Position numbers and translations under genes: made by a program
The notes under the pieces: model-generated
What the model was told of the DNA's origin: nothing
The model's input: the letters and a program-made list of their open reading frames with translations, nothing else
Databases searched by the model: none
NCBI GenBank assembly: GCA_026986155.1
Contig: JALSPC010000165.1
Location: 7,870-71,869, forward strand
Length of the DNA: 64,000 bases
Source of the DNA: a bacterium
Lineage (GTDB): Bacteria > Desulfobacterota > S145-22
Reading direction: 5' to 3'
Shown here: piece after piece, positions 1-52,457 of the stretch
How the letters are laid out: every line of letters starts with the position of its first letter
How positions within the stretch are numbered: the first letter of the stretch is position 1

Positions 1-378
1 ATGGTTCCCGTTCAACTGAAGGAATCGGCCTACGGGATGGGATCCACCACCTTCGAAGTGGCCCGCAAGGTCACCCTCCGTTACGGCATCGATGGTATCG
101 TGGGGGCCGCTTTCCTGGGCCTGGGACGCGCCCTGGGGGAGACCATGGCCGTGACCTTCGTCATCGGAAATTCTCACAAGATCTCCACGTCCCTCTTCAC
201 CGGCGCCAACAGTATTGCCTCCACCCTGGCAAACGAGTTCACCGAGGCCTCCGACCCTCTCTATCTCAGTTCCCTCGTGGAACTGGGGCTGATCCTCCTC
301 GTTATCACCATCGGGGTTCAGATCCTCTCCCAACTCTGGCTCAAGCGGATGCGCGGCAAATCCGGCAGGGGACTGTAG
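1..378 (+). CDS. pstC: Phosphate ABC transporter permease PstC, C-terminal part (5' end outside window)
   Basis: ORF open to the window start. Permease-like hydrophobic C-terminus. Followed by pstA-pstB-phoU with the stop overlapping the pstA start. Confidence 0.8.
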   Translation: MVPVQLKESAYGMGSTTFEVARKVTLRYGIDGIVGAAFLGLGRALGETMAVTFVIGNSHKISTSLFTGANSIASTLANEFTEASDPLYLSSLVELGLILLVITIGVQILSQLWLKRMRGKSGRGL

Positions 379-379
379 G

Positions 380-1228
380 ATGAAAAGAAGACCCGCCACG
401 TTTCGGAAGCTGACCAATCGCCTCGTCGTGGGTCTTTCCGGGGGTGCCGCCCTGCTGGGGCTCTTTTTCCTGGGTTGGATCCTCATGGGGGTCATTCTAC
501 GGGGAATCTCCGCCCTTTCACCCGATTTTTTCACGAAGCTCCCCACCCCGCCGGGGGTTCCGGGCGGGGGGCTGGTCAACGCCATCGTGGGAACCCTTCT
601 CATCACGCTGGCGGCGGTGTTGCTGGGGGTTCCGCTGGGAATCCTCGGGGGAATCTACCTCTCGGAATTCGGGGAACATTCAAGGGTCGCGGCCACCGTC
701 CGTTTCGCGGCGAACGTCCTGATGGGGACCCCGTCCATCATCGTCGGGGTGTTTATCTACGCAATCATCGTCTTCCCGACGGGGCACTTCTCGGGCTATG
801 CCGGCGCGGTCTCCCTCGCCGTCATCATGCTGCCCGTGGTGGTGCGCACCACGGAGGACATGCTGCGCCTCGTACCCAATACCCTTCGCGAATCGGCCCT
901 GGCTCTGGGCGCGCCCCGGTGGAAGGTCACCTTCCAGGTGGTCTTCCGGGCGGCCAAGTCGGGACTTTTGACGGGCGTGCTGCTGGCCGTGGCACGGGTT
1001 AGCGGGGAGACGGCCCCCCTGCTGTTCACCGCGCTGAACAGCCCCTACTGGGTGAAATCCCTCTCCGGGCCCACGGCCAACCTGACCGTGACCATCTTTA
1101 ACTACGCCATGTCCCCCTACCGGGATTGGCAGCGGCAGGCCTGGGGCGCCTCCCTCCTCATCATGGTGGGGGTTCTGCTGGCGACGCTCCTCGGCCGACG
1201 CGTTCTCAAGGAGAAAAAACGTAAATGA
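380..1228 (+). CDS. pstA: Phosphate ABC transporter permease PstA
   Basis: 282 aa multi-TM protein. ATG at 380 overlaps the pstC stop (TAG 376-378). Operon context with pstB and phoU. Confidence 0.88.
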
Positions 1229-2115
1229 GCCCTGTCATCAAACCCCTCTACTTCGATTCGGCGGACAAGCGGGGTTTTCGAAACGAGGTTTCGATCGAAA
1301 AGCCCGGTAACCGGCCAGGAAACGAGGAACCCCGGCACGGCGACCAGGCAAAAGACTCCCTGGCACCCAAGATCTCCGTGCGCCATCTCGATTTCTTCTA
1401 CGGAGACTTCCAGGCCCTGAAGGACAATACCCTGGACATCTACGACAAGAAGGTGACGGCCATCATCGGCCCTTCGGGCTGCGGCAAGTCGACACATATC
1501 CGGGTTTACAACCGCATCTACGACCTCTACCGGGAACAGCGGGCGTCCGGAGAGATAAGGATGGACGGAGAGAACATTCTCTCCCCGGGATACGACCTCA
1601 TCGAGCTGCGGCGCCGGGTGGGCATGATCTTCCAGAAACCCACGCCGTTTCCCATGAGCATCAAGGACAACGTGACCTACGGCCTCAAGATGCACTACAA
1701 GATGAGTCGATCGAAGATGATGGAACGGGTGGAGTGGGCGCTGAAACAGGCGGCCCTCTGGGACGAGGTCAAGGAAGACCTGGACCGTCCGGCCACCGCC
1801 CTGTCCGGGGGGCAGCAGCAGCGGCTCTGCATCGCCCGCGCCATCGCGGTGGAGCCGGAAATCCTCCTCATGGACGAACCCACCTCGGCCATCGATCCCA
1901 TCGCCACCTCCAAGATCGAAGACCTGGTGGTCAACCTGAAGGACCGTTTCACCATCGTGATCGTCACGCACAACATGCAGCAGGCGGCCCGCATCTCGGA
2001 CTTCACCGCCTTTTTCTACCGCGGGGTCATCGTGGAATACGGAGAGACGGAAAAGATCTTCACCAAGCCGGCCAAGAAGCAAACGGAGGAATACATCACG
2101 GGGCGGTTCGGGTAA
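1225..2115 (+). CDS. pstB: Phosphate ABC transporter ATP-binding protein PstB
   Basis: Walker [13 protein letters not shown] signature LSGGQQQR, Walker [15 protein letters not shown] overlap with the pstA stop. Confidence 0.93.
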
Positions 2116-2205
2116 GAGTCCCGAGCGCCATGTCCAACGGTTACCGTCCCGGGACCTTGCGTTTTGCGCCCAGTTGAATTAAAGATAGATGGAAAGGGAG
2201 AAAAG

Positions 2206-2892
2206 ATGTCGGTTCACCTGCAGAAAGAGATAGAAAAACTGAAAAAACTGATTATCGCCGAGGGAACGGTGGTGGAGGAATCGGTGGCCATGGCGGTCAG
2301 CGCCATCGAGAAACGGGACAGGGGCCTGGCCCGAGAAGTCATCGACATGGATGAAAAAATCGACCAGCTGGAGGTCAACCTGGAGGAGGAGGGCCTCAAG
2401 ATCCTCGCCCTCTACCAGCCGGTCGCCATCGACCTGAGGTTCATCGTGGCCGTCTTGAAAATCAACAACGACCTGGAGCGCATCGGCGACCTCTCGGTGA
2501 ATATCGCCGAGCGGGCCCTCTTCCTGGCGTCCCAGCCCCCCATCGACGTCCCGTTCGACTTCAAGACCATGGCAGCCAAGGCCCGGGAGATGCTTAAAAA
2601 CAGCCTGGACGCATTGGTGAAGATGGACACGGGAACTGCGAAGGAGGTCTGCGCCGCGGACGACGTGGTGGACGAAATTAACCGGCAGATGTATTCCCAG
2701 GTGAAGGAAGGCATTCGCGAGCAGCCCGCCCGGCTGGAATGTCTCATCCATTTTCTCCTCGTCTCGCGCCACCTGGAAAGAATCGCCGACCTGACCACCA
2801 ATATCGCCGAGGACGTCATCTACATGATCGACGGGATGATCGTCCGGCACAAGGTGGAAGATTACGTGGCGCAAGCGCCCTCAAGAGCCTGA
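2206..2892 (+). CDS. phoU: Phosphate signalling complex protein PhoU
   Basis: Two PhoU-type helical repeats (RIGDLSVNIAE / RIADLTTNIAED). ATG at 2206 preceded by GGGAG; the ORF track uses an upstream TTG at 2164. Immediately follows pstB. Confidence 0.88.
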   Translation: MSVHLQKEIEKLKKLIIAEGTVVEESVAMAVSAIEKRDRGLAREVIDMDEKIDQLEVNLEEEGLKILALYQPVAIDLRFIVAVLKINNDLERIGDLSVNIAERALFLASQPPIDVPFDFKTMAAKAREMLKNSLDALVKMDTGTAKEVCAADDVVDEINRQMYSQVKEGIREQPARLECLIHFLLVSRHLERIADLTTNIAEDVIYMIDGMIVRHKVEDYVAQAPSRA

Positions 2893-3572
2893 AAGGAACG
2901 GCACGCTACTTTTTATCCAGCGTTTTCCGGATTTGATTGCGAGGTCTCTCGCGTGAAAGACTTTTAAAAATCATATTGCCTCCTTCACGTTATTCACTGT
3001 CACCATTCCCAAGTTTCTCAAGAACCCCAGGGGGCACCACAAAGACATCTTTCTCGGTCTTGACCAGAACCCACAACCCGCGGGATCGGAACCATCAAAT
3101 GTGCAAGGTGGGCAGGAGAAGATACCGCTTCTGTTCCAAGGAGAAGAAGATCCACTTAACCGTGCTCCGCGCGGAGAAGAAGATCAAGATCTTTCGCGAG
3201 AAGTATCAATGGCGATTGGGGATTAAGGCGACATAGTCCGCCCTGAATCGGCTTAAAGGATCCAGGCGGTTGCGATCCAGAGGGATAGACGCGCGAAGAT
3301 GAGTGTCCTGCTTAGACTTCTTGGGTTAAAGCTGTGTAGCGGAAATTCTGCCTTGATAACCACAATGAGAGGTCAAACAGGCCGACAGAAGTCGTATTTT
3401 GGATTTTTATGGTATTTTTCAAGGCGTTTATGGTCGAAATCTGGGGCATGATGAACGAATCAAGGCTGTCCAAAACAGCTTTTCCACGGATTCAGCGTCC
3501 CAGGCTGCAAATGACAATTTGAACCCTTTTGGGGTCTCCCAAACCATCATGCTTGTCCTGTTGACGAAGGAA

Positions 3573-3601
3573 TTGACACCTCTTTTTGGATAGGTTAGAA
3601 A
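3573..3601 (+). promoter_or_regulatory. Candidate sigma70-like promoter of the low-GC cassette (TTGACA-N17-TAGAAA)
   Basis: TTGACA at 3573-3578, a 17-nt spacer, then TAGAAA at 3596-3601. GGAGG RBS at 3611-3615 and ATG at 3624. Confidence 0.3.
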
Positions 3602-3623
3602 TCATATTCTGGAGGCAACGATC

Positions 3624-4253
3624 ATGGCGAAATGGAAAATGAATTGCCCTTTTTCTGGAAAGGGTTGCAAGGAATGCTCAATATATCGGGGGAGACACTA
3701 TTTTCTTTGTTTTTCTAAGAGGTATAGAGGTGTCATTGGAGACCGGGTGGATAATTTCGAGGAGGTCTTGAAGAACACCTCCTTTTTCCCTTCGTCGAGA
3801 GACGAAAAAAGAGAGCCGAAAGTTTCCATGGAGAAGTGGGATAAATCCGTTTTCGGCACGGAGACGGTTTTAATTGTGGAAGACGACGATTTCTGGCAGG
3901 ATTTCCTGCGTTGGGCTCTTGACGACACGGGATACAATATTATCATTGCCAGTGGCAAGGAGGCTATTGATATCTTCGATAAGCGTTGCGATGAAATAGA
4001 CCTTGTCATCGCGGATGCGGCATCGTCGGGAAGAGGAATAATCCGTTACGCGAAGGAAAAGAAACCTTCCGTAAAGGCCATACTGACGACTGGAAACTAT
4101 TCCGCGGTTTCAGATTTTCACGATGAAAATCGGGTGGCCGCGGTTTTGCAAAAACCCTACAGCTCTTACACGCTGGTAAGGACGGTGCGAGATGTCTTGG
4201 ACGGGAAAGTTTTTTCTCGACAGGATCTTGAAACAGCAGCGGCAGTTTCGTAA
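3624..4253 (+). CDS. Orphan response-regulator receiver (REC) domain protein with an N-terminal four-cysteine motif and no output domain
   Basis: GGAGG 8 nt upstream of ATG 3624. N-terminus carries four cysteines spaced C-x6-C-x2-C-x10-C (CPFSGKGC KEC ... FLCF). Canonical receiver signatures: acidic EDDD, phospho-acceptor Asp in DLVIAD, conserved T in ILTTG, conserved K in LQKPY. Low GC compared with the flanks. Confidence 0.7.
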   Translation: MAKWKMNCPFSGKGCKECSIYRGRHYFLCFSKRYRGVIGDRVDNFEEVLKNTSFFPSSRDEKREPKVSMEKWDKSVFGTETVLIVEDDDFWQDFLRWALDDTGYNIIIASGKEAIDIFDKRCDEIDLVIADAASSGRGIIRYAKEKKPSVKAILTTGNYSAVSDFHDENRVAAVLQKPYSSYTLVRTVRDVLDGKVFSRQDLETAAAVS

Positions 4254-4293
4254 GAATCAAGACGGGGAAAACAACAAAAAAGGAGGAGATACC

Positions 4294-4569
4294 ATGCCTG
4301 ACGTTGAAAAAGCCAAATCTCTCATCCCGTATTTCGAGGAACAGTTGCCGGGGTACACCATTGAGTTCAAGTATGTCACCCACATGCGCTTTGAATACCG
4401 GTTTATCCAGAAGGGCAAGATTCAATACCGCGTGGCCTTGTCCATCGATCTGGTGGACAAACATTCTAAGGAAGAGATCATTGCCCATTTGGAAAAGAAA
4501 AACTGGAAGGCGGAACTGGAGAAGCTGGATCCCATAACCAACACGACAGCCTATTTTGGAGAGGATTAA
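4294..4569 (+). CDS. Hypothetical small protein (91 aa), second gene of the low-GC cassette
   Basis: AGGAGG at 4281-4286, 7 nt before ATG 4294. Lies 40 nt after gene 1. No family recognised by eye. Confidence 0.55.
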   Translation: MPDVEKAKSLIPYFEEQLPGYTIEFKYVTHMRFEYRFIQKGKIQYRVALSIDLVDKHSKEEIIAHLEKKNWKAELEKLDPITNTTAYFGED

Positions 4570-4583
4570 CCTCCTTTTCCATC

Positions 4584-4955
4584 ATGGTATTCAGGACACT
4601 GGACGATGTCAGAAAGGTGTGGGACCAGATACAATGGGATCTCACGCCCCAAAAGGTGACGCTCCGATTGAGGAAGGCCTTTGCGGAGCCCGATAAAAAT
4701 CAGGCATTGATTGCGTCCATGCGGGGGTACTATTTTTGTATCAACGTATGGGGATGCAAGGCTTATCTGGCCCTGGTGGATCATGTGGAGAATTTCGGGG
4801 AACCGTATATCCTGGAAGACGCTGGAATTCCAGAGGAAATTTTGGAGAAGGCCGTTTTCGAACAGGGGGGATCCATGCTGATAGCCGGCCTATATGCCAT
4901 TGACGACGCCATAAAAAAAATGATTATGGAAAGGATCGGGGGTGAACGGAAATGA
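4584..4955 (+). CDS. Hypothetical protein (123 aa), third gene of the low-GC cassette
   Basis: ATG 14 nt after the gene 2 stop. Ends 22 nt before a strong intrinsic terminator. No family recognised. Confidence 0.55.
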   Translation: MVFRTLDDVRKVWDQIQWDLTPQKVTLRLRKAFAEPDKNQALIASMRGYYFCINVWGCKAYLALVDHVENFGEPYILEDAGIPEEILEKAVFEQGGSMLIAGLYAIDDAIKKMIMERIGGERK

Positions 4956-4976
4956 AGAAATTCATGGGACACGACG

Positions 4977-5002
4977 GGAGGCCATGCGGCCTCCCTTTTT
5001 TG
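4977..5002 (+). terminator. Rho-independent terminator
   Basis: Perfect 8-bp GC-rich stem GGGAGGCC / GGCCTCCC with loop ATGC, followed by TTTTTT (4997-5002). Confidence 0.7.
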
Positions 5003-5169
5003 TGCGCCTGACAGGGTATCGATACAGCGAAATGAAAATCCTCTACGAACCGAGGTGATGGGAAACGTTAACTGAGGGCAAGAGTGTTTTTGCGAAGCGG
5101 GGTTTTTTATTTCTCTGTGTTTGTGTATAAAAACATAAAGAGATTTTGAAATAGAAGGAGACGAAAACC

Positions 5170-5931
5170 ATGCAATACGCGCTGGTTCGGGGTATCCCCG
5201 ATAGTTTCGACCAGTGTATCAAGCCCAAGGACAATCCGCGGCCCATCGACGTGGCACTGGCGAGGCGGCAGCACCAGCGTTACTGCGAGATTTTGTCCCA
5301 GTTGGGCTGGACGGTGATCCTGGCGCCCCCGGATGACCGGCTTCCCGATTGCCCCTTCACGGAGGACACGGCCGTGGTGGCAGGGAAACGGGTCCTTATC
5401 ACCCGTCCCGGCGCGGCCTCTCGGAGGGACGAGGTTAAGGTATCAGCGGAGATCTTAGGACATTTTCTGGACCTGACCCGCATGGCTTCCCCCGCCACCC
5501 TCGAGGGCGGGGATGTCCTCCAGGTGGGGAATACCCTCTTCGTGGGGCGGACGAAAAGGACCAATGACGCGGGAATCAAGGCGCTGTCGGACTGGGCGGG
5601 GGCCTCCCGCACCGTTGTTCCCGTCGCGCTCACCGGCGCGCTGCACCTGAAAACCATCGTGAACGTCCTGGACGCCGGGACCGTGGTTGTCTCGGGCGAC
5701 GGGGTTGACCCGGGGATCTTCTCGGCCTGTAAAGTTTTAAAGGCCCCGGAGGCGGAAGCCTCCCGGCTGAGCTTTCTTCCGCTGGGAAGGCAGGTTATTC
5801 TCCCCGCCGACTGCCCGGAAACGGCCCGGCTTTTCGAACGGGAGGGTTTTGCGACGATTCCCATCGACATCTCCGAGATACGCAAGGCCCAGGCGGGGCT
5901 GACCTGCATGTCTGTCTTGTTCGAGGCTTGA
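5170..5931 (+). CDS. N(G),N(G)-dimethylarginine dimethylaminohydrolase-like amidinohydrolase (amidinotransferase superfamily)
   Basis: GAAGGAG RBS upstream of ATG 5170. 253 aa. The C-terminal GLTCMSVL motif carries the active-site Cys typical of DDAH / arginine deiminase-fold enzymes. Confidence 0.75.
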   Translation: MQYALVRGIPDSFDQCIKPKDNPRPIDVALARRQHQRYCEILSQLGWTVILAPPDDRLPDCPFTEDTAVVAGKRVLITRPGAASRRDEVKVSAEILGHFLDLTRMASPATLEGGDVLQVGNTLFVGRTKRTNDAGIKALSDWAGASRTVVPVALTGALHLKTIVNVLDAGTVVVSGDGVDPGIFSACKVLKAPEAEASRLSFLPLGRQVILPADCPETARLFEREGFATIPIDISEIRKAQAGLTCMSVLFEA

Positions 5932-5938
5932 TCTGTCC

Positions 5939-7036
5939 ATGACACCCGCGGAAAAAATCCTTGCGGCACGCATTGCGCGCGAGGGCCCGATTCCCTTCCG
6001 GGACTTCATGGAAACCGCCCTCTATCACCCGGAGACGGGCTATTACACGGCCCAGGCGGGGCAGATAGGGGAGGCGGGCGATTACTACACGGCAAGTTCT
6101 CTGGGATCCCTGTTCGGAAGGATGCTGGCGCGTCAGTTCCAGGAGATGCTCTCCGGCATGGACGCGACCATGATTGTCGAGGCCGGGGCGGGTAAGGGCA
6201 TCCTGGCGCGCGATATCCTCGAGGCCTGGTCGGGGGGCAGGGATGAGGCGCGGTATGTCATCGTCGAAAGGAGCCCCGCGTTGCGGGCGGTCCAGGAAGA
6301 GGTCCTGGGCGGAAGGAAGGTGTCATGGGTTGAGACCGTGAACGACCTTCCAGAAATCGAGGGCGTCATCTTTTCCAACGAACTTTTCGACGCCTTCCCC
6401 GTTCACGTGGTGGAGATGACGGAGGACGGCCTGAAAGAGGTTTTCGTGGATTGGCGCGAGGGGTTCGAAGAGGTGCTGATGCCCCCGTCAACCCCTTTGC
6501 TCGCCGATTATTTCGAGACCCTCGGGGTTTTACTTCCGGCCGGCTTTCGCGCGGAGGTGAACCTGGAGGCCCGCGCGTGGCTGAAGGCGGCCGCTTCGAA
6601 ACTGGCGCGGGGGTATCTGGTCACCATCGATTACGGCTATCCCACGCGTGAACTCTACCAGGATTACCGGCGGCGCGGCACCCTCATGGCCTACGAGCGG
6701 CACCAGGCGCTGGAGGACCTTTACGAGAACGTGGGGCGCAGGGACCTGACGGCCCACGTCAATTTCTCCGCGCTGGCCACATGGGGGAAGGCGTTCGGAC
6801 TGAACGTGACGGGGTTCACTGACCAGGCCCATTTCCTGATGAGTCTGGGGATTCTGGATGTCTTGTCGGACGCCGGCACGCCGGAAGAGGTCAAGGCCCG
6901 CCTCAACGCCAAGTCCCTCCTCTTGCCGGGGGGGATGGGCGAGATCTTCAAGGTCCTCATCCAGCACAAGGGGCTCACGCCGCCGCCTCTTTCGGGATTG
7001 AGCCACTTGCCGAGACGGGCGAGCTGCCGGTTGTAA
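5939..7036 (+). CDS. Class I SAM-dependent methyltransferase, MidA / NDUFAF7-like (DUF185)
   Basis: 365 aa. Glycine-rich SAM-binding motif VEAGAGKGILARD and overall MidA-like layout. Starts 8 nt after the ddaH-like gene. Confidence 0.75.
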   Translation: MTPAEKILAARIAREGPIPFRDFMETALYHPETGYYTAQAGQIGEAGDYYTASSLGSLFGRMLARQFQEMLSGMDATMIVEAGAGKGILARDILEAWSGGRDEARYVIVERSPALRAVQEEVLGGRKVSWVETVNDLPEIEGVIFSNELFDAFPVHVVEMTEDGLKEVFVDWREGFEEVLMPPSTPLLADYFETLGVLLPAGFRAEVNLEARAWLKAAASKLARGYLVTIDYGYPTRELYQDYRRRGTLMAYERHQALEDLYENVGRRDLTAHVNFSALATWGKAFGLNVTGFTDQAHFLMSLGILDVLSDAGTPEEVKARLNAKSLLLPGGMGEIFKVLIQHKGLTPPPLSGLSHLPRRASCRL

Positions 7037-7054
7037 TAATTTTTGGAGATTAAG

Positions 7055-8544
7055 ATGTCGAAAAAAAAGAAGATTGGGCGGAATGACCCGTGTCCCTGCG
7101 GGAGCGGGAAGAAGTACAAAAACTGCTGTCTGAAAAAGGAGATCCAAACGGTGGATCTTTTTTGGCGGAGGACACGGGAAGCCCTGCAAGCCTCCTCGGA
7201 CGCGCTGCTGAATTTTGCTGAAAAAAGAGTGGGTGATTGGGGCCTGTCTGTTGCCGCGGGCGAGTTTTTTTTTTGTGGCCTGATGATCCTTTGGTTTTGA
7301 CTGATTTATTGAGAGGACACTTCGATATTTTTGCTCCGTGGTTTATCTACAATTGGGTCTACGACCCCGAGGAATTGGAAGATGAGGGCATAGAGTTGCC
7401 TATTCCTCCCAATATGACGCTTTCGCAGATCTTTCTGGAGAAGAGAGGGAAAAACCTGGACAGCCTTCAACGCCGCGTGCTGGAGGCGAATATAAGACGG
7501 CCCTACACCTTTTACGAAGTAAAAAGCTGCCGTCCGGGTGAGGGGGTTCAACTCGAAGATCTCATCCTTGGTGATGTCATCGATGTGTTTGAAGAGAAGG
7601 GATCGGAAAACTTGAATCCGGGAGATATCCTTTTCGCGCGAACCGTCACGATCGATCATGTCACCATGCTCGACGGGTGTGGCAAACATAAAATTCCGAG
7701 CGATTTCAAGGAAAACATCCTTGAGTTCAGGGATAGGATATTACAAGCTTACGATACGCTGACGTGGGAGGTTCTCGAGGAATATGACATGGAGATACGG
7801 GATTTTTATTTCTATGTCTGCGATGATTTTCTGGAGCCGCTTGTTTCCCAGAATACGGATGGCGATCCGCTTCTCTTCCATACCCTTTATTACGAAATTG
7901 ATGACCCGGGGGAGGCGTTTGAAAAATTGCGCCCGCTCGCCAAGGGCATCAGTAAGCAAAAGCTGCTGGACGAGGCCCTTTACGACAGAAACGGCAATCT
8001 GGTCGAGATTGAATTTCCTTGGCTGCGGAAGGGATTTAAGGGGAACGCGTTGTTTGACGATACCGTTCTTGGGAATATCTATATTAAGAAAGATATCTTA
8101 ATCATTGATGTGAATTCAGCTAAGCGGGCGGAGAAGATAAAAAATGAGATCACAAAACGTCTGAAGGGACATGCCAGGTTGCGTGACACGGATATCCAGA
8201 CCCTTGAAGAGGTCCGAGGCGGGGAGGAAGATGACTGGGATGAGGACTTGGAAGACGAGCTTGATGACGAAGCTTTGCTGAAGAGACCGGAAATCCAGGA
8301 AGGCCTCGTGAAAATACTCAACGGTAAATGGGAAGAATGGCTTGACGAGGAAGTCCCGTTCTTCGGCGGGAAAATACCCCGCGAAATGGTCAAGACAAAG
8401 GAGGGCCGCGATCGGGTGCGGGATTTCTTGAAGTTTATGGAAATGGAGGTGCGTAAAGATGAAGTGATGGGCGCCGCCCATCTGCGCGGTATCCAGAAAG
8501 TGAGAAAGGCCCTGGGGCTTCCCGTTGATGGCGAGGAGGAATAA
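7055..8544 (+). pseudogene. SEC-C metal-binding motif protein interrupted by a frameshift at a T10 homopolymer (85-aa and 435-aa ORFs)
   Basis: N-terminal SEC-C motif [15 protein letters not shown] from ATG 7055. The reading frame changes at T10 (7265-7274). Adding one T fuses the upstream frame to the downstream ORF (…[19 protein letters not shown]…). The C-terminal part is acidic (EEDDWDEDLEDELDDE). Low GC. Confidence 0.5.
7265..7274 (+). repeat. Poly-T (T10) homopolymer tract at the frameshift site
   Basis: Ten consecutive T's counted directly in the sequence. Confidence 0.9.
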
Positions 8545-8767
8545 GAGCTTAAAAGGTCCAAGCCTCGCCATTTCAAGGGCATTAAGCATTATTTACGGCT
8601 TCATAAAAAGTCCAATGCCCGCACCTGCCAGCGCGTGACCGCGCGCAGACAGGTCGCGTTGCGTCCCTCATATTGCGACTGGCTTCAAATGCGTTTCAGC
8701 CCTAACAAATCGCGCTTCTTGAACTACTTTGCCTTATAAAAATATAGGTTTGGCGAGATTATCAGAT

Positions 8768-8796
8768 TTGACATAACGGGAAAGGCGTGCTATTGA
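8768..8796 (+). promoter_or_regulatory. Candidate promoter of the marR-RND efflux operon (TTGACA-N17-TATTGA)
   Basis: TTGACA at 8768-8773, a 17-nt spacer, then TATTGA at 8791-8796. GAGG RBS at 8832-8835 and ATG at 8841. Confidence 0.4.
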
Positions 8797-8798
8797 TA

Positions 8799-8819
8799 GG
8801 CTCCTAATAATTAGGAGCC
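8799..8819 (+). promoter_or_regulatory. Perfect 10-bp inverted repeat GGCTCCTAAT-A-ATTAGGAGCC, putative MarR autoregulatory operator
   Basis: Perfect palindrome immediately downstream of the -10 element and 22 nt upstream of the marR start codon. Confidence 0.5.
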
Positions 8820-8840
8820 AAAATATCGTGTGAGGTAAAA

Positions 8841-9380
8841 ATGTTGGAAAAAATCAATGAAAAACTTCTCGCGAATTTGAAGCGGGAATTTCCCACGAGT
8901 GATACGGAGTTTCTTGTGACGTTCATTCGCGTGATTCACTTCCAACACGCGGTTCCCAGCCTTTTCGACCAGTATTTCTCACGGATGGGGCTGTCCAAGG
9001 CCCGGTTCATGGTTTTGATTCAGCTGTTTCTCCGCGGGGGCGAGGAAGGGCTGGGGATCTCGGAAATTAACCGCTTCTACGGCGTCAGCGCCGCCACGAT
9101 GACGGGGGTGGTGGATACCCTGGAACGGGAAGGGTATGTAAAACGCTCCCACAGCGCGAAGGACCGGCGTCGCGTCATCCTCAGGCTTACGAAGCACGGC
9201 GAGTTGTTTATGCGACGGTTCATCCCCGTTCACGCCTTGAACCTGAAGAATATGATGCGGTCTTTCTCGCGCGAGGACCTGACGAACCTGATGAATCTGA
9301 ACGCGCGGCTCGTGGAGAGTATCGAGTCGTTTTTGTCATCGGATCGGCTGAAAATTCCCGGGGAGGGGGTTGGGAAATGA
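8841..9380 (+). CDS. MarR family transcriptional regulator
   Basis: 179 aa. Winged-helix region EINRFYGVSAATMTGVVDTLEREGYVKRSHSAKDRRRVILRLT is typical of MarR. Its stop overlaps the start of the downstream efflux outer membrane factor gene. Confidence 0.85.
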   Translation: MLEKINEKLLANLKREFPTSDTEFLVTFIRVIHFQHAVPSLFDQYFSRMGLSKARFMVLIQLFLRGGEEGLGISEINRFYGVSAATMTGVVDTLEREGYVKRSHSAKDRRRVILRLTKHGELFMRRFIPVHALNLKNMMRSFSREDLTNLMNLNARLVESIESFLSSDRLKIPGEGVGK

Positions 9381-10852
9381 AATCGGTTAGTAGCGTGAGA
9401 ACAGGAATTCTTGAGAGGGCCTTGGCGTGGGCCGGCGCTGTGACGGCGTTTGCCCTGTTTTTGCCGTGGTTTTATGGGTGTTCGCTGGCCCCGCCGATGA
9501 AGAAGGTCGAGATTCCCGGCGCTGCACGGACGTCGTTTTCGGGGGACAAAACGGGGCGACCCTTCTCGGATTCCGCGTGGTGGACGCTTTTCGGGGACAC
9601 AAGACTGACCGATCTCATAGCCTACGCCCTGAAACAGTCCCCGGACGCGCGGCACGCCCTCCTCAACGTGGAGGCCTTTCGCCAGCAGATGATCATCGCG
9701 AGGGCCCCCCTCCTGCCGGGGGTTGATTTCAACGGAGACATCGGACGGAGCCGCCAGCCGGTCTATGACCGGAAGGGTAACCGAAAGGGCGAAGAGGTCA
9801 ACAATTTTGGCTTGCTTTTGACGGCCTCCTATGAGGTGGATCTTTGGAAGAGAATCGCCAACTCGGCGGAGATGGCCCGTCTCGCGCTTTTGTCCTCAAG
9901 GGAAAACCTGAACACGGTTTACCAGACCCTGACGGCGAATGTTTCCCGCCTCTACTTCGAGATTTCGGAACTGGAGGCGGAGCTTCCCCTTTGGGGGCAG
10001 CTATTGAAGATAACGAAGCTCCAGGCGGATGACGCGAAGCGCGGCTATTTCAACGGCATCATGGACGGAAACACCTATCTTACCATCCAGCAGCGGGAGG
10101 AGAAGGCGCGCCAAGACCTCTTCGCGAACCGAAGAAAACTTTCTGTCTCGCGGTTTGGGCTGAACACGCTCATGGGGAAGGAACCGGCCGCCCGCCTTGT
10201 CGTTTCCCCGTTTGACATCTTCGAGAAGGGGCTTGCCCCGGTTCCCGCGGGTTTGCCTTCGAAGCTGCTGGAGAGGCGGCCAGACGTTCGTATTGCCGAG
10301 CTTCGTGTCCGCCAGGCCCTGTTGAACATCGGGGTCAAGAAGGCGGCCCTGCTTCCCGCCTTGAGGCTCACCGCCAACGGGGGCTACCGGAGTCCCGAAC
10401 TCTCGGACTTGACCGGCGGGAGCTCCAAGGTCTGGGCGCTCCTGGGCGGGTTGACCCAACCGATTTTTCACCGGGGCGCCAAGAAGGCGGCGGTAAAAAA
10501 GGCGGAAATCGAGGCGCAGATGGCCGTGGAGGCGTATCGCAAGGTGGCCCTGAACGCCTTCAGGGAGGTGGAATCCGCCCTGACTGTCTACGAGGAGTTG
10601 GTCCTGCAGTTGGAGCAGGAAAAGAAGGCGTATAGAAACGAGGCTATCGTCTACCGCAGGGTTCACAACGGCTACCTCTCCGGGACGCGTTCGTTCCAGG
10701 GCTTTTTGTCCGCCAAGATTTCCCTCTTGAGCCGTCGAATCGTCGTCTTTCGCCTCTATCTCCGCCTGCTTCAGAATCGTGTCCAGCTCTACACGGCCCT
10801 GGGGGGCGGGATCGCGAAATTCAAAGAGATTGCGGGAGGTGGTCATGAATAG
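9377..10852 (+). CDS. RND efflux outer membrane factor lipoprotein (NodT / TolC family)
   Basis: 491 aa. Signal peptide with lipobox FYGC. Two outer membrane factor-type repeats. ATGA overlap with marR. Confidence 0.88.
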   Translation: MKSVSSVRTGILERALAWAGAVTAFALFLPWFYGCSLAPPMKKVEIPGAARTSFSGDKTGRPFSDSAWWTLFGDTRLTDLIAYALKQSPDARHALLNVEAFRQQMIIARAPLLPGVDFNGDIGRSRQPVYDRKGNRKGEEVNNFGLLLTASYEVDLWKRIANSAEMARLALLSSRENLNTVYQTLTANVSRLYFEISELEAELPLWGQLLKITKLQADDAKRGYFNGIMDGNTYLTIQQREEKARQDLFANRRKLSVSRFGLNTLMGKEPAARLVVSPFDIFEKGLAPVPAGLPSKLLERRPDVRIAELRVRQALLNIGVKKAALLPALRLTANGGYRSPELSDLTGGSSKVWALLGGLTQPIFHRGAKKAAVKKAEIEAQMAVEAYRKVALNAFREVESALTVYEELVLQLEQEKKAYRNEAIVYRRVHNGYLSGTRSFQGFLSAKISLLSRRIVVFRLYLRLLQNRVQLYTALGGGIAKFKEIAGGGHE

Positions 10853-11972
10853 ATTCATGAAGGTTTTCCTGCCGGTTGTCATTATCGTCACGGCCGTCTT
10901 TTCCGTTTACCTGTTCATCAAGTTCAAGAAGGTCCCGCCGAAAAAGGCGGCGCGCGCGAGGGGGCCCCTGGTAACCGTCGAGGTGGCGCGCAGGGTGAAA
11001 AACCCCATTGTCATTGTTGGATACGGAACGGTAAGACCGGTACACACGCTCAACCTGGTTCCGCAGGTTTCGGGAAAGGTCGTGGCTGTGTCGAAAAACT
11101 TCATCGAGGGCGGCTTCGTAAAACGCGGTGAGGTTCTCGTCCAGCTCGAAAAGACCGACTACGCGATCGCCCTGAAGCGGGCCGAGGCAAATCTCTTGAA
11201 CAGGGACGTGGCATATAAAAAGGCCTTGAAACAGGCCCATATCGCGAAAAAAGAATGGGAAGAGATCCTAAAAAACGTCCTTATGGATAAGAAGGTGGTT
11301 CCGGACGCCCTGACCTTCTATCTCCCACAGCTCAAGGCGGCCAAGGCGGCTTACGACGCGGCGGCGGCGGACCTCCGCCTCGCGAAGTTGAACCTGGAAA
11401 GGACAACATTACGTTCGCCCTACGACGCGCGGGTCTTGAAACGTCTCACCGACCTGGGGCAATTCGTCACACCGGGCAAGGTCATCGGACACCTTTTCAG
11501 CACGGGGGTGGCGGAGATCGAGGTCCCCCTCAGGTCCCGGGATGCGGCATGGCTCACGGTGCCCTCCACGGCGGAGGTGATATCGACCCTCACGGGAAAA
11601 AAGGTCCGGTACCCCGCGATGCTTGTCCGCACGGCGGGCGCTGTCGACCCGGGCTCACGGATGCTCCACGCCATTCTGCGGGTGAAGGCCCCTTACCGGT
11701 TCACTCCCCCCTTGGAAAACGGGGATTTTGTCACGGTCCGAATCCGGGGAAAGACGGGGGAAGGTTTCTGGATCTCCGCCAAGGCGGAGCGCGACGGCAA
11801 GGTCTGGATCGCCCGGGAGGGGAAACTCGTGATCCGAACCGTCAGAGTCCTCTACCGTGAGAAGGAGAAGGTCTTCGTTTCCGGTCTCCGTGAGGGAGAC
11901 CCGGTCATCACCACCTCCCTGTTTGCCGTGACGAACGGGATGCAAATCCGGGTGAGAAAGAGCGCGAAATGA
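10845..11972 (+). CDS. RND efflux membrane fusion (periplasmic adaptor) protein
   Basis: ATG at 10845 overlaps the outer membrane factor stop. N-terminal TM anchor, then a biotinyl-lipoyl-like and beta-barrel adaptor layout. Confidence 0.88.
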   Translation: MNRFMKVFLPVVIIVTAVFSVYLFIKFKKVPPKKAARARGPLVTVEVARRVKNPIVIVGYGTVRPVHTLNLVPQVSGKVVAVSKNFIEGGFVKRGEVLVQLEKTDYAIALKRAEANLLNRDVAYKKALKQAHIAKKEWEEILKNVLMDKKVVPDALTFYLPQLKAAKAAYDAAAADLRLAKLNLERTTLRSPYDARVLKRLTDLGQFVTPGKVIGHLFSTGVAEIEVPLRSRDAAWLTVPSTAEVISTLTGKKVRYPAMLVRTAGAVDPGSRMLHAILRVKAPYRFTPPLENGDFVTVRIRGKTGEGFWISAKAERDGKVWIAREGKLVIRTVRVLYREKEKVFVSGLREGDPVITTSLFAVTNGMQIRVRKSAK

Positions 11973-14900
11973 AACGGGCGATACGATGGATGGTGGAAAA
12001 CCCCGTTTCCGCTAATCTCCTGCTGGTCTTCATTATCGGGTTTGGGATCCTGCAGGCCCTTTCCATCAAGAAAGAGGTTTTTCCCGAGTATTCCCTCGAT
12101 ATGATCTCGGTCACGGTTCCTTATCGCGGTGCCACGCCGACGGACGTGGAGGAAGCCGTCTGTACGCGCATCGAGGAAGAGATCAGCGGCCTGGACGGCA
12201 TCAAGCGAATTACCTCCACGGCACGGGAAGGGCTCGGAACCGTCCTCGTGGAGGTTCAGAAAGGATACGACGCCAAGAAGCTGCGGGACGACGTCAAGAG
12301 CGCCGTGGACCGTATCACGAACTTTCCGAAGGATATCGATCAGCCCGTCGTGACCGAGGTGTCCCGGAAACGGGAGGTCTTGAAGGTGGTTCTCTACGGC
12401 GGCGTGGACGAGAAAGACCTGAAACGTTCGGGGGAACGGCTGCGGGACGATCTATCGTCTTTGAAGGGAATTTCTCTCGTCACCCTCGACGCGGTTCGCC
12501 CCTATGAGGTTTCCATCGAGGTGCCGGAGACAATGCTCGAGAAGTACAACCTTACCATCCCGCGCGTGGCTGCCATCGTGGCCGCCAATTGCCGGGACAT
12601 TCCGGCGGGGAAAATCCGTCAAAAGGGGGAAGAGATCCTGGTCAGGACAAAGGGGCTCAAGTATACCCGAAAGGATTTCATGGGCATCCCCGTCATCCGG
12701 GATCCGGCGGGGGGATATGTGCGCCTGTCGGATATCGCGAATATCGTGGATGGTTTCGAGGAGACCGACGCCGCCACCTATTTTGACGGCCAGCGCGCTG
12801 TCCTGCTGAAGGTTTATCGCATTGGGGAACAGTCGGCCCTGGATATCGAAAGGGCCGTCAAACGCCAATTGCCGCGTTTGACACAGACCCTGCCTGACGG
12901 GATTCACTGGGTGATTACGAACAACAGGGCCCGGATCCTGCGGGACAGGCTTGACCTCCTCGTCCGGAACGGCAAGTACGGGCTCATCCTCGTGGTTCTG
13001 CTCCTCGCCATGTTCCTGGAGCTTCGCCTGGCGCTCTGGGTGGCCATGGGTATCCCCGTGGCCTTCTTTGGATCCTTTATCCTCCTGCCATATTTCGGGG
13101 TCTCGGTCAACATGATTTCCCTTTTTGCCTTCATTATCTGCCTGGGAATCGTGGTGGATGACGCCATTATCATCGGGGAACATATCTTTACCAAGATTCA
13201 GGATGGCGTTCCTCGTAAAGAGGCCGCGGTGGAGGGGGCCTACGAGATGGCGGCGCCCGTCATCCTGACGGTCCTGACTACCATCGCCGCGTTTCTGCCC
13301 CTGCTGTTCGTGTCGGGGATCATGGGGAAATTCATGTTCGCCATTCCGGTAGTGGTCATCTCGGTCCTCTCCATCTCCCTGGTGGAGGCGATATTTATCC
13401 TTCCATCCCACTTGGCTCATCTCAAGGAACGGAAAGACAGCCACATCGTCCGGTTCCTGCCGAAATACTTCGATAGCTGGCTCGAGGCCTTCATCGAAAA
13501 GGTTTATCAACCCGTGCTGAAACTTGCCCTCTCTTGGCGGGTGACCGCGCTGGCGCTGGGCATCCTGATGCTTTGCCTGATGGTGGGATACGTAGCCTCG
13601 GGCCGGATAAAGATTGTCTTTTTCCCCAAGGTGGACGCGGATTTCGTCATCGCCGAGGTGAAGCTTCCAGAGGGGGCCAGCGCGGACCAGACTCTCCACG
13701 CGGTCCGGCGCCTCGCGAAGAGCGCGGACGCGGTCCAGGCCTACTACGAAAAGCGTTACGGTAAATCGATCGTGAAGCATCTCGTGCTGACAGTGGCGTC
13801 CCAGCCTTACGGTTCCCGTCACGAGGTTACCCGAAACGCCGCGCCGAACATCGGGGAGGCGGCCATCGAGCTGGTGGCGGCGAATGACCGGAAGGGCATC
13901 AACAGCAACGAGGTGGCGAACGTGTGGCGGCGGCTGACGGGGGAGGTCCCCGGCGCGGAGAGCGTGACTTACAACGCCAATCTCTTCTCCGGGGGCGCAG
14001 CCATCGATATCCAGCTTTCCTCCGACGACTTCGAACAGTTGAAACAGGCATCCGCGCGTCTGAAGCGGGAACTTGCCAGGTTCAACGGCGTCAAGGATAT
14101 TCACGACAACATCGAAGGGGGAAAACAGGAGATCAACCTGAAACTGACCGACCGGGGAAAGGCCTTGGGCCTGAACCTGATCGATCTGGGGTTGCAGGTC
14201 CGCGGAGCCTTCTACGGAACGGAGGCCGTTCGAATCCAGCGGGGGAAGGACGATGTCCGTATCATGGTTCGGTATCCCACAAACGGAAGGATCTCCCTCC
14301 TGGACCTTGAAAAGATGGAGATTGAAACCGCCAAGGGCGCGCGGATCCCCCTCCCTGAAGCGGCCACCTGGACTATCCGCCCGGGATATTCGGTGATAAC
14401 CCGTTCGAACCGGCGCCGAGTCGTCGATGTCAAGGCGGACGTGGTAAGAAGCATCTCCAACGCGGATGAAATCATCAAGGAACTCCAGGGGAGTTTTCTG
14501 GAGCGCCTCAAGGCTGATTACCCCGGATTGAACTACTCTCTTGAGGGTGAGGAGAAGGAAAGGCGGGATTCCATGCGGAGCATGATGTACGGCTTCATCG
14601 TGGCCTTGTTTCTCATTTTTGTTCTCCTGGCGATTCCCTTCAACTCCTACATTCAGCCTCTCGTCATCATGACGGCTATTCCCTTCGGGATCATCGGGGC
14701 CGTCCTGGGCCATCTCCTCCTGGGATTTAATCTCAGCATCGTGAGTTTTTTCGGTATCGTCGCCCTGGCGGGGGTTTTGGTCAACGATTCCCTCGTTTTG
14801 CTCGATGCCATCAACAAGCGGATGGCATCTGGGGCCCCCAACAAGATAGAGGCCGTGATTGAGGCGTCGAAATCACGTTTCCGGCCCGTCATCCTGACCT

Positions 14901-20700: not shown

Positions 20701-21261
20701 TCCGGACGCATCGCGGAGGTGGGATTCGATCTTTACATGAAAATCATCGAGGAGGAGGTAAAGAAACTAAAGGGCGAGTGGGTGGAGCCCGCGCCCCAGG
20801 CGGATCTCACGCTCCCCTTCACCCTGTTGCTGCCCGAGTCCTATATCCCGGAGATGGGCCTTCGATTGATGTTCTACCGCCGTCTCTCTACGGCCACTCG
20901 GACCGGCGAGGTTACGGAGATCGCGGACGAAATGCGGGATCGGTTCGGGCCGCTTCCCCCTGAGGCGAACCGGCTTCTTGACATGGTCCGTCTCAAGATA
21001 TGGTTGACCGAGCAGGGTGTGATCACGCTCCACGGGAAGAAAAACGAGATCGTCGTGGGCTTTTCCGAGGGAAGCTCCCTCGACCGTTCCAGGCTTGTAG
21101 CCCTGCTCCAGGAAGACCCGCGCCATTACCGAATGGCGCCTTCCCAGAAACTGATTGTCCGGATGAAGATGCCCGATTCCTTTCCAGACTACCTTGAAAA
21201 ACTCACCTCCATCTTGAAGCAATTCCTGGGGTATGATAAAAATTCGAACAGCCCGATATGA
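17707..21261 (+). CDS. mfd: Transcription-repair coupling factor Mfd
   Basis: ~1180 aa. UvrB-homology N-terminus, RNAP-interacting domain and superfamily 2 helicase motifs (GDVGFGKTEVA, DEEH, QLRGRIGR). An upstream in-frame GTG at 17674 is also possible. Confidence 0.9.
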   Translation: MREDGPLLQVDSRGLKGFFEAVNRFVEDLKDAAALQLAGVKGEARAFVACALWAARRGPVVMVLPDIRTRNRVAQALEAFRDLLGQPLDIPSEARILTFPSYELTPYLDEWMQPSVASGRVKGLFALLKGAPTALLTTPEALVPRLVSPKDFQKGIMTLTPGDALGDRDAFLRELFYRGYAGVPSVELPGDMAVRGGVMDVFSPMEEDPVRIELEGDEVASLRVFDPATQRTTRVVTRYVIGPAQELFPQSPVAEIRKRLYALQTTRRGKNAIRRLLKSLEAGESFENRLWLSSYLFEMTSDFFAYMPPETPVFWWDPEECLTNLERFHESARKQHERKSAEFPLFPPPKALFLSPGEAVGRLEKRPLVSFGLYVTKRMTPRTVDILASEPFQPMGPATDRAAAWPPQVVADEARRLHGEGYEVWIAEPEKRQRARLIEMLLERDLAFPVLAHPEPDREDSRGGIIEAAVPESFLLPRLKLALLTRSRAREGILRRGKEKPSGLRVSDLAVFKEGDPLVHVDYGIGLYRGLKRVDVLGKPGEFMVMEYAKGDKLFVPIDRLDAVQRYVGSSDTPPPLDTLGTASWEKKKARLREDVAKIARELLDLYATRKAVKGYAFDGATEGLREFEGSFPYQETPDQKRAIEEIYLDMASETPMDRLVCGDVGFGKTEVAMRAAFKSVMEGKQVAILVPTTVLAEQHYVNFSRRFSPYPVRVELLSRFRSRQVQREVVADLKKGKVDIVIGTHRLLQKDVAFRDLGLLIIDEEHRFGVTHKELLKKLSATVDVLTLTATPIPRTLQMSLSGLRDLSLINTPPRARLPVMTKIARFRKDVIAEGIERELARGGQVFFVYNRVKTIAKMARLVQELVPETRVTYAHGQMDEKALEEVMLAFMRHEIDVLVCTTIIESGVDIPNANTLFVHHAEQFGLSTLYQLRGRIGRSDRQAYAYFLVPHRAILPREAIKRLQSLQEFSNLGSGFKLSMTDLNMRGGGDLLGRRQSGRIAEVGFDLYMKIIEEEVKKLKGEWVEPAPQADLTLPFTLLLPESYIPEMGLRLMFYRRLSTATRTGEVTEIADEMRDRFGPLPPEANRLLDMVRLKIWLTEQGVITLHGKKNEIVVGFSEGSSLDRSRLVALLQEDPRHYRMAPSQKLIVRMKMPDSFPDYLEKLTSILKQFLGYDKNSNSPI

Positions 21262-22250
21262 CGGGAAACGATACTTTTAAAGGGGTCGCCATTATTCTTC
21301 TGAAAAGATGTTCATGGTTCCTCGTCCTTGTTGTGGGAGGGATGTGTCTTTTTGCCTGTGGAAAGGAGGCGACTCTTTTCAAGAAGGAAAAGGTCATAGC
21401 GAAGGTGGATGGCGCCCGCATAACGAATAGGGATCTGGTAAGGTATTACCGATCCGTTGTCCCTACCATACCGGGGGATCCCGGTCAAAAGGATCCCGTT
21501 ACCCAGGACCTCAAGAAGTCCCTCCTCGAGAGGCTGATCGATGATAAATTACTGTTGATTCAGGCGGCCAAGTCGGGAATCACCGTGAGTGACGAGGAGG
21601 TTCAGAAACTCTATGAGGGAATAGCACGGGATTATGGCAAGGATTTTAAGACATACCTCAAGAGTCTCCATCTCACGCCGGAGGCGTGGAAGAAGGCCTT
21701 GCGCGAGGATCTTCTTATCGACAAGGTCATCAAGCGGCACATGCGGACGATCCAGGATGTAACCCGGAAAGAGATAGAGACCTATTACAATGCCCACCGG
21801 GACGAATTCCAGATTCCCATGGAGTATCACATCGCGCAAATCGTGGTGCCATCCAGAAAACTGGCCGAACAGGTTATGGAAGAGTTAAAAAAAGGAAAGG
21901 AATTTCAAAAACTTGCGAAACGTTTCTCCATATTCCCTGAGGGAAAGCGGGGCGGGGACCTGGGGTTCTGGCGCGAGGATCGCCTCCCGGAGGAGTTCGA
22001 GATGGTTCGGCAAATGCGGGTGGGGGAAGTCAGCGGGATCCTTCATTCCCCCTACGGTTACCACATCATCAAGCTGGAAGGGCTCAAGGAGTCGAGAATC
22101 CTCAGCTTGAAAGAGGCGGGACCCCGCATCGCGGAGAAACTTCGGCGCGAGATGCGCGAGAAGGAAAAGGCCCGGTGGCTCGAGGAACTCAAGAAGAAGG
22201 CGCACATCGTTCGTGACATGAAGGCGCTGGAGGACGTTTCGTTCAATTGA
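21258..22250 (+). CDS. PPIC-type peptidyl-prolyl cis-trans isomerase (SurA-like periplasmic chaperone), paralog 1
   Basis: Signal peptide / lipobox-like N-terminus. Parvulin domain (…FSIFPEGKRGGDLGFW…GYHIIKLEG…). ATGA overlap with mfd. Confidence 0.8.
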   Translation: MTGNDTFKGVAIILLKRCSWFLVLVVGGMCLFACGKEATLFKKEKVIAKVDGARITNRDLVRYYRSVVPTIPGDPGQKDPVTQDLKKSLLERLIDDKLLLIQAAKSGITVSDEEVQKLYEGIARDYGKDFKTYLKSLHLTPEAWKKALREDLLIDKVIKRHMRTIQDVTRKEIETYYNAHRDEFQIPMEYHIAQIVVPSRKLAEQVMEELKKGKEFQKLAKRFSIFPEGKRGGDLGFWREDRLPEEFEMVRQMRVGEVSGILHSPYGYHIIKLEGLKESRILSLKEAGPRIAEKLRREMREKEKARWLEELKKKAHIVRDMKALEDVSFN

Positions 22251-22267
22251 AAAGGGGGGAACTAAAG

Positions 22268-47713: not shown

Positions 47714-52335
<4,622 letters not shown>

Positions 52336-52419
52336 TTACTTATAGTCTATACTTCATATGTGAATATAGCATAAATAGAAATCGATCCATGTTCCTCCCA
52401 TATTTCGAAATTATATTAT

Positions 52420-52436: not shown

Positions 52437-52457
52437 TTTTTGCCAAAAAAAAATGGT

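Follow-up and report, generated by a model that had tools for sequence, protein, structure and literature searches.

Three adjacent genes, here called g1, g2 and g3, lie between phoU and ddaH in a 64,000-nucleotide stretch of contig JALSPC010000165.1 (assembly GCA_026986155.1, Desulfobacterota); this whole stretch is referred to as the window. It is well supported that the trio is an autonomous operon with a single promoter, a single terminator and three cytoplasmic protein products. The best reading of its origin is that the trio is indigenous to a small set of genomes with lower GC and reached the phoU-ddaH gap by lateral acquisition or relocation. The joint explanation that was preferred, with a probability of about 0.45, combines a laterally acquired operon with a g1 product that would act as a metal- and phosphorylation-gated adaptor via g2 and g3. 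The mechanistic part of this explanation, in which a metal or Fe-S signal and phosphorylation would gate the adaptor and its action through g2 and g3, is proposed with low confidence.

Base composition and chromosomal location

The sequence-only reading had described an AT-richer stretch around the trio and had proposed its horizontal acquisition. Total GC was 0.44-0.51 across positions 2801-5200, as against 0.60-0.65 in the flanks. The GC content at third codon positions (GC3), which does not depend on amino-acid content, is a sharper test than total GC, and it was deviant too. GC3 was 0.51 in g1, 0.64 in g2 and 0.60 in g3, while the other genes of the window had a mean of 0.757 with a standard deviation of 0.060 (n = 43); the corresponding z values were -4.0, -1.9 and -2.7. 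At six relatives' loci, the GC3 of the trio lay inside the scatter of the neighbouring genes (z from -2.4 to +1.9; host GC3 of 0.51-0.61). The window copy is flanked by pstAB-phoU on one side and by ddaH/Methyltransf_28 on the other, and the rest of the window is core chromosome (mfd, surA, fusA, dnaJ, katG and fur). Because the GC3 of the trio was deviant here but host-like in relatives, and because the neighbours were different, it was concluded that the trio is foreign in the window genome. Three signs of horizontal acquisition, namely, deviant codon-position composition here, host-like composition elsewhere and a non-syntenic location, were found, in support of the earlier reading.

No tRNA gene was detected in a scan of the whole window, positions 1-12000 contained no Rfam match, and neither an integrase nor bounding repeats were found around the cassette. 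A search around the cassette for target-site duplications and terminal inverted repeats returned only short matches, such as often occur by chance. The earlier statement that no integrase or tRNA is located nearby was confirmed. The statement that a kinase is missing as well was corrected: a PhoR-type kinase is encoded approximately 7 kb upstream, just outside the window, as part of the pho operon. A functional link between the trio and the Pho regulon was considered and rejected because adjacency to phoU is unique to the window genome.

Operon structure and expression signals

The features of the cassette are listed in Table 1. The three co-oriented open reading frames (ORFs), their intergenic gaps (40 nt between g1 and g2, and 14 nt between g2 and g3), the TTGACA-N17-TAGAAA promoter and the hairpin with its T6 tract, all of which had been reported from the sequence alone, were present. 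The gene g2 itself was retained, but its start was moved from position 4295, as given previously, to the ATG one nucleotide upstream. The promoter was skipped by a consensus scan because position 6 of its -10 element is not T. The terminator, which has the sequence GGGAGGCC-ATGC-GGCCTCCC followed by T6, was found by a scanner and had a folding energy of -24.4 kcal/mol (z = -3.3). Analogous GGAGG...CCTCC hairpins were found 3' of g3 at three other loci (L006, L013 and L015).

Table 1. Features of the trio locus, in window coordinates
Feature	Position	Strand	Description
g1	3624-4253	+	209 aa; Cys4 module, linker and receiver (REC)
g2	4294-4569	+	91 aa; alpha/beta, soluble; no family
g3	4584-4955	+	123 aa; DVU0772-family protein, by sequence
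Promoter, sigma-70-type	3573-3601	+	TTGACA (3573-3578), 17 nt, TAGAAA (3596-3601); by sequence inspection
GATAGGT box	3589-3595	+	abuts the -10 element; conserved across loci
Intrinsic terminator	4976-5001	+	8-bp GC-rich stem, 4-nt loop, T6
Spacer between phoU and the promoter	2893-3572		AT-richer, 680 nt; no gene called

The ribosome-binding sites claimed previously were confirmed for g1 (GGAGG at 3611-3615, 8 nt 5' of the ATG) and g2 (AGGAGG at 4281-4286, 7 nt 5' of the ATG) but not for g3, upstream of whose AUG a well-placed Shine-Dalgarno sequence was absent. This AUG is located inside a weak hairpin (-14 kcal/mol, z = -1.8) that reaches across the stop codon of g2. Since g3 has no well-placed Shine-Dalgarno sequence and its AUG is enclosed in a hairpin over the g2 stop codon, the translation of g3 is probably coupled to that of g2.

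The arrangement TTGACA / 17 nt / TAnnn[T/A] upstream of g1 was kept in all eight loci that were compared. In these loci, the -35 element TTGACA was invariant, a GATAGGT or TTTAGGT box abutting the -10 element was conserved, and the sequence 5' of approximately -45 was unalignable. Judging from its conservation, the GATAGGT box may be an operator. The DNA of the window was homologous to that of the other loci from 3553-3572 to approximately 4953, the g3 stop codon; therefore, the conserved unit extends from the promoter to g3. The autonomy of the unit, as proposed earlier, was borne out by its own conserved promoter, by its terminator and by the colinearity of the trio at every adequate locus.

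Neither Rfam nor Pfam gave a match for the spacer between phoU and the promoter, related loci showed no homology to it, and the ORF that it contains (2937-3233) belonged to no family. Remnants of NicO or of other neighbours of the relatives were looked for in the spacer by comparison with related loci, and none were found. The spacer may be a donor-derived flank. Within it, GGAGAAGAAGATC occurs twice as a perfect direct repeat of 13 nt (3140-3152 and 3173-3185), and positions 2964-2977 are a 14-nt near-copy of the -10 region of the cassette promoter.

The trio in other genomes

Copies of the trio, both exact and homologous, were traced to metagenome contigs and metagenome-assembled genomes (MAGs). 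The complete trio was found at 11 other non-identical loci (L006-8/16, L009, L010-12, L013, L014, L017, L018, L077, L078/79, L080 and L081); this count leaves out the source contig (ENA ERZ27262668 k141_547103), and a further locus, L015, begins inside the trio. The synteny of the three genes was kept, their order and strand being identical at every locus long enough to show the trio. Where organism labels were given, they were uncultured Thermodesulfobacteriota, except for L013, which was labelled Proteobacteria. Carriers of the trio were rare among species-representative genomes (6 of 185,579). As a unit, the trio was absent from all of the libraries searched, in agreement with the earlier suggestion of an undescribed system.

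Runs of N, representing masked sequence or scaffold gaps, interrupt the trio or promoter region in L018 (3242-3685) and L010 (approximately 6700-6800). An apparent g2-g3 fusion ORF in L018 was rejected as an artefact of the N run.

Selection on the three genes was assessed by pairwise Nei-Gojobori comparison with the window copy. The proportion of synonymous differences (pS) was 0.66-0.91, that is, saturated, and the proportion of nonsynonymous differences (pN) was 0.08-0.24 for g1, 0.007-0.105 for g2 and 0.07-0.24 for g3. Where it was computable, the ratio of nonsynonymous to synonymous substitution rates (dN/dS) was at most 0.14. Saturated pS together with low pN indicates that these are three real protein-coding genes under strong purifying selection. 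The most constrained of them was g2, with 85-99% identity.

In most relatives, the operon occupied one stable chromosomal position and was not located in an island. Upstream, the usual context comprised a CoxSML-like Mo-hydroxylase operon and PEBP, followed by isochorismatase and NicO/DsbD_2 genes on the opposite strand. Downstream, a second, convergent Mo-hydroxylase operon with COXG, rhodanese and GlnE was usual. Departures from this context were observed at several loci. In L080 and L081, AAA_14/DUF4143 and UDG-like genes and an unknown gene encoding 343-404 aa were inserted between NicO and the trio (L080 3312-6612; L081 591-4212), which makes the site upstream of the trio a variable spot. 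In L014, a liv operon was in place between NicO and the trio. An rRNA dimethylase gene was found downstream of the trio in L017 and a PIN gene in L018. In L077 (MAG GCA_053937425.1), the trio was directly followed by an 84-aa Xre_MbcA_ParS_C-like ORF (8459-8713, + strand; 21.2 bits), which was 42% identical to the C-terminus of a DUF7986 protein of the window (window 8329-8520). Thus, in two contexts that differ in other respects, an antitoxin-like domain is encoded close to the trio. No HisKA or HATPase_c kinase gene was called in the fetched DNA at any trio locus.

The g1 protein

Residues 81-195 of g1 make up a REC domain that contains E86/D87, the acceptor D131, T155 and K177. PF00072 matched g1 with E = 1.3e-5 over profile positions 1-110 of 111, but the score of 25.8 bits was lower than the gathering score of 30.2, and precomputed Pfam hits existed for only 3 of 18 close g1 orthologue clusters. 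The best NCBIfam matches were the C-terminal receivers of the hybrid kinases PRK13557 (2.1e-18) and CckA, together with CpdR, and the best PDB match was also a hybrid-kinase receiver (E = 5.9e-8). E86, D88, D131, T155 and K177 were invariant in 16 orthologue clusters, and the KPYSSYT..R.VRDVLDGK segment (beta5-alpha5) was wholly invariant across them. The domain had previously been called a canonical receiver. Its phospho-acceptor residues were indeed in place, but with a score below the gathering threshold and an exchange of D87 in some orthologues, which is considered below, it can hardly be termed canonical. The g1 protein is a divergent receiver that, judging from its conserved residues, can probably be phosphorylated.

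The Cys motif reported earlier, C8-x6-C15-x2-C18-x10-C29, was present within residues 1-42 of g1, and all four Cys were invariant in the 16 orthologue clusters, in which residues 6-41 were mostly invariant as well. The Cys4 segment is basic (pI 9.9, with 10 K+R versus 2 D+E) and is joined to the receiver by a conserved acidic linker (residues 43-80). Residues 1-78 had no Pfam or PDB match, and no other architectures with the Cys4 head were found in a full-length search. No DNA-binding or enzymatic output domain was found in g1. The single PADLOC match of g1, PD-T4-6 (E = 2.6e-7), covered residues 45-195 only, that is, the linker and the REC domain.

The motif that holds the [4Fe-4S] cluster of Endo III and MutY is Cys-X6-Cys-X2-Cys-X5-Cys (PMC11138216). 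The first three Cys of g1 have the same C-x6-C-x2-C spacing and stand in a basic segment. This spacing is regarded as a lead for cluster binding and not as membership; binding of Zn would be equally possible.

The g2 and g3 proteins

As had been stated previously, g2 matched no Pfam or NCBIfam family; it had no PADLOC or PHROGs match either, and a PDB sequence search returned nothing meaningful. A marginal relative was found in the genome of a 735-kb uncultured huge phage (LR756501.1), where a 92-aa ORF is located at approximately 167.3 kb (L082 3944-4222). The tblastn E value was 0.03, and pairwise hhalign gave a probability of 92.6%; the 66 aligned columns were 41% identical, and one strand was missing. 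This ORF is a possible remote homologue of g2 and is treated as a lead only. A neighbour of the phage ORF has a DnaJ-like CxxCxGxG zinc motif. The possibility that g2 and g3 are paralogues was rejected (hhalign probability of 0.3%). A longer form of g2, starting at MSWTGK inside g1, was also rejected because the extension is what the conserved g1 C-terminus and the ribosome-binding site give when translated in another frame, and because it is interrupted in L009.

The earlier statement that g3 has no family did not hold. Comparison of g3 with NCBIfam NF045682 (DVU0772_fam) gave 43.2 bits against a cut-off of 45 (E = 3.7e-11), and the alignment covered profile positions 1-98 of 100. A profile of the g3 clade of the trio retrieved 69 representatives, and all 34 aligned members of the g3 family matched NF045682, with a best E value of 1.5e-21. 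The motifs W-x-L-T-P, G-Y-Y-F-x-I-x-V-W and G-G-x5-G-x-Y were common to g3 and 33 relatives, and the conserved residues of the family are W18, P22, G48, F51, V55, W56, G95, G96 and Y104. By its sequence, g3 is a DVU0772-family protein; the g3 proteins of the trio clade form a distinct branch with at most 44% identity to other members. Placement of both g2 and g3 in well-characterised families had been named in advance as a refutation of the earlier interpretation. One of the two genes does belong to a named family, but the interpretation was not refuted, since the DVU0772 family has no known function. A literature search on DVU0772 found no publications, no PADLOC or PHROGs match was obtained for g3, and the PDB sequence search was without meaningful result.

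In a wider survey, 55 metagenome loci with distant DVU0772 members were inspected. No recurrent partner of these genes was found in more than four of them. At many of the loci, the gene was one of a series of small ORFs on the same strand, accompanied by hallmarks of mobile elements: Mu portal and Mu F (L053), a MobA/MobL relaxase (L038), AAA_24 with DUF2201 (L019), an rve transposase (L046) and, at further loci, three phage integrases, LAGLIDADG and Endo VII. One IMG/VR contig carried a distant member of the family. Since distant g3 relatives are free-standing, the g3 domain can work without g1 and g2. It was concluded that the g3 domain is a free-standing, often mobile-element-borne module and that only in the trio clade is it coupled to g1 and g2.

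In a few distant DVU0772 representatives (P0080, P0110 and P0092/P0095), a g3 domain, itself weakly matched (E from 1.6e-7 to 5.5e-4), is fused to a PNP_UDP_1, guanylate kinase or Lcl_C domain. These fusions may hint at a nucleotide-related role of the family.

Mobile-element and defence searches

The plasmid set was searched by tblastn with g2, g3, the g1 N-terminus and one distant g3-family member, and no relatives were found. A tblastn search of the phage set with g3 and two distant members of its family was also without relatives; there, g2 gave only the marginal huge-phage match. IMG/VR scans revealed no relative of g1, of g2 or of the trio's own g3 clade. Pfam and NCBIfam revealed no toxin, antitoxin or anti-sigma domain, and for g2 and g3 they gave no STAS or HATPase_c match at E <= 1. 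The conflict, toxin-antitoxin-like and partner-switch designs that the sequence-only reading had put forward received no positive evidence.

Comparison with known systems

Orphan CheY-like receiver adaptors such as CpdR of Caulobacter and Brucella resemble g1 in having a REC domain with the acceptor Asp, the Thr and the Lys, no output domain and no adjacent kinase. However, the CpdR model gave g1 a score of 39.7 against a cut-off of 180, and g1 was far below every equivalog cut-off. Unlike adaptors of the CpdR type, g1 has an extra invariant 80-residue Cys4 and linker region and is always encoded alongside two specific small proteins. The nearby cognate kinase or phosphotransferase gene of a two-component system was not found; the only kinase near the window copy is PhoR of the pho operon, and g1 may be served by an unlinked kinase.

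In the PhyR-NepR partner switch, an N-terminal output module is gated by a C-terminal receiver, and small partner proteins take part. By analogy, g1 could be compared with PhyR, as it consists of a small N-terminal module, a linker and a C-terminal REC domain and is co-encoded with small proteins. However, g1 lacks a sigma-like domain, no sigma factor gene is linked to the trio, and neither g2 nor g3 showed similarity to NepR, to anti-sigma or STAS proteins or to the HATPase_c type that partner switches also use.

The members of NF045682 resemble g3 in their near end-to-end alignment and common motifs but, unlike g3, they stand alone, often in mobile elements, and neither g1 nor g2 lies beside them. 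The closest known systems also include BPSL1050 of Burkholderia pseudomallei (PDB 2mpe), a functionally uncharacterised protein. The kind of operon, that of an orphan receiver, is known; the g1 head domain is new, and the trio as a unit is undescribed.

Proposed mechanism and alternative explanations

According to the mechanism proposed, g1 would be an orphan receiver without an output domain whose C-terminal REC domain appears to keep phospho-acceptor chemistry. The basic Cys4 module would hold a metal centre, either a [4Fe-4S]-type cluster or Zn. With phospho-acceptor chemistry in the receiver and a metal-binding head, g1 would combine the two kinds of signal: phosphorylation, with an unlinked kinase or a small phosphodonor as its source, and a metal or redox signal. 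The result would be relayed via the invariant alpha4-beta5-alpha5 face, by protein contacts, to g2 and g3, which are putative partner or effector subunits. Alternatively, the basic Cys4 module of g1 might bind nucleic acid, for example, the GATAGGT box of its own promoter.

Several observations weigh against the laterally acquired, dually gated operon favoured here. The Mg-binding D87 of g1 is replaced by Asn in 2 of the 16 orthologue clusters (P0039 and P0040; L009, L010 and L017; the 199-aa subgroup), so that some orthologues may work independently of phosphorylation. The spacing before the fourth Cys of g1 is 10, not 5 as in Endo III/MutY; the HhH-GPD glycosylase domain of these enzymes is lacking, and no profile of HhH-GPD or of another Fe-S family matched residues 1-78. 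A g1- or g2-like neighbour was found at none of the 55 distant DVU0772 loci. With regard to transfer, every sampled copy differed from the window copy by at least 22% in nucleotides, with synonymous sites saturated; no donor was found among the sampled copies, the best nucleotide identity being 78%, and the insertion is marked by no mobility gene or target duplication.

Another explanation is a conflict module of mobile-element origin with a defence, anti-defence or addiction role. In it, g3, and perhaps g2, would be a domesticated accessory protein of a phage or plasmid whose activity is gated by g1, and the whole cassette would spread horizontally. The foreign composition of the trio in the window genome agrees with this explanation, as do the Mu, relaxase, transposase and integrase hallmarks near distant DVU0772 genes, the one IMG/VR member and the marginal g2 relative in the 735-kb phage. 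Additionally, toxin-antitoxin-like or variable genes abut the trio in some relatives (PIN in L018, the Xre_MbcA_ParS_C-like ORF in L077, and AAA_14/DUF4143 with UDG in L080/81), and a second foreign pair (SEC-C and DUF7986/Xre_MbcA_ParS_C) is located 2 kb downstream in the window. However, g2 and g3 had no PADLOC or PHROGs match, and the PADLOC match of g1 was limited to its REC-like region. The trio has no nuclease, NTPase, pore or other effector domain and no recognisable toxin or antitoxin, and it is accompanied by no integrase, tRNA or flanking repeats. It has no relatives in the plasmid set, g3 has none in the phage set, and the trio clade is missing from IMG/VR. Furthermore, most relatives share one syntenic site with native GC3, and the very low dN/dS, above all that of g2, would be unusual for arms-race genes. 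The conflict module was considered unlikely, with some weight left to it by the mobile-element character of g3, and perhaps of g2, and by the accessory genes next to the trio in some relatives. Less likely still is an undescribed signalling or conflict module in which g1 would carry an Fe-S head sensing redox, nitric oxide or O2, would integrate phosphorylation with redox and would control a domesticated g2/g3 pair of novel fold and of phage or plasmid origin.

A very unlikely alternative is that the operon regulates the homeostasis of a metal (Ni/Co, or Mo enzymes), so that the g1 Cys4 motif would sense the metal and the operon would control NicO/DsbD_2 or the Mo-hydroxylase operons. The invariance of the Cys4 motif is consistent with such a role. 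NicO/DsbD_2 is divergent from g1 at a distance of 139-186 nt in L018, L077 and L078/79 and lies within a few kb of it in L009-L012, L014 and L080/81, and the neighbours of the trio in most relatives include CoxSML-like Mo-hydroxylase operons, COXG and rhodanese. However, this adjacency may be mere synteny of close relatives, given that the proteins encoded around the trio hardly differ between those loci, and it is broken in L080/81, where other genes separate NicO from the trio, and by the liv operon in L014. In addition, the window copy is intact in its promoter and reading frames, yet no NicO or Mo-hydroxylase homologue was found in the 64-kb window, and no match to a known metal-regulator family was obtained. 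Least probable of the explanations considered is that the trio is ancestral and vertically inherited, its low GC reflecting gene-specific constraint or low expression. In accordance with vertical inheritance, the GC of the trio is nearly constant (0.43-0.49) across hosts with GC of 0.44-0.59 and slightly below that of the flanks in several of them, the locus lacks mobility genes and repeats, and there is no close donor, as nucleotide identity does not exceed 78% and synonymous sites are saturated. Nevertheless, GC3 was host-like in six relatives and 2-4 standard deviations under the host mean in the window, the position in the window is unrelated to the syntenic position of the relatives, and the only equally deviant genes of the window are another accessory-looking pair.

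If the proposed adaptor mechanism is true, g1 would add a Cys4 input or output module, possibly an Fe-S one, to the receiver repertoire. The function of the DVU0772 family, which was named by NCBI and is uncharacterised, would then become approachable for the first time, as would that of g2, which is nearly frozen at 85-99% identity in spite of saturated synonymous divergence. The locus is a clean, small case of a regulatory operon that moved with its own promoter between related anaerobes differing in GC. As matters stand, it counts among the numerous conserved but functionally uncharacterised operons of uncultured bacteria and has no bearing on a long-standing question.

Other observations in the window

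Besides the stretch around the trio, GC was low at 7001-9000, 21001-23000 and 52001-53000. The second foreign pair (7055-8544, + strand), approximately 2 kb downstream of the trio, consists of a gene for an 81-aa SEC-C-motif protein that overlaps a gene for a 415-aa DUF7986/Xre_MbcA_ParS_C protein; their GC3 z values were -2.5 and -2.8. The two foreign segments, the trio and this pair, enclose the native ddaH-Methyltransf_28 pair. The SEC-C protein matched the PADLOC E2/PDC-S12 models through its C-terminal motif only.

Two tandem genes for SurA-like peptidyl-prolyl isomerases, downstream of mfd (21258-23233, + strand), explain the low-GC patch at 21-23 kb (GC of 0.50-0.52; GC3 z of -1.6 and -0.8). 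Another stand-alone receiver (PF00072, 142 aa) is encoded at 30739-31167 on the - strand, adjoining a Memo/AMMECR1 gene; this receiver gene and an adjacent 62-aa ORF had somewhat low GC3 (z = -1.7 and -1.2).

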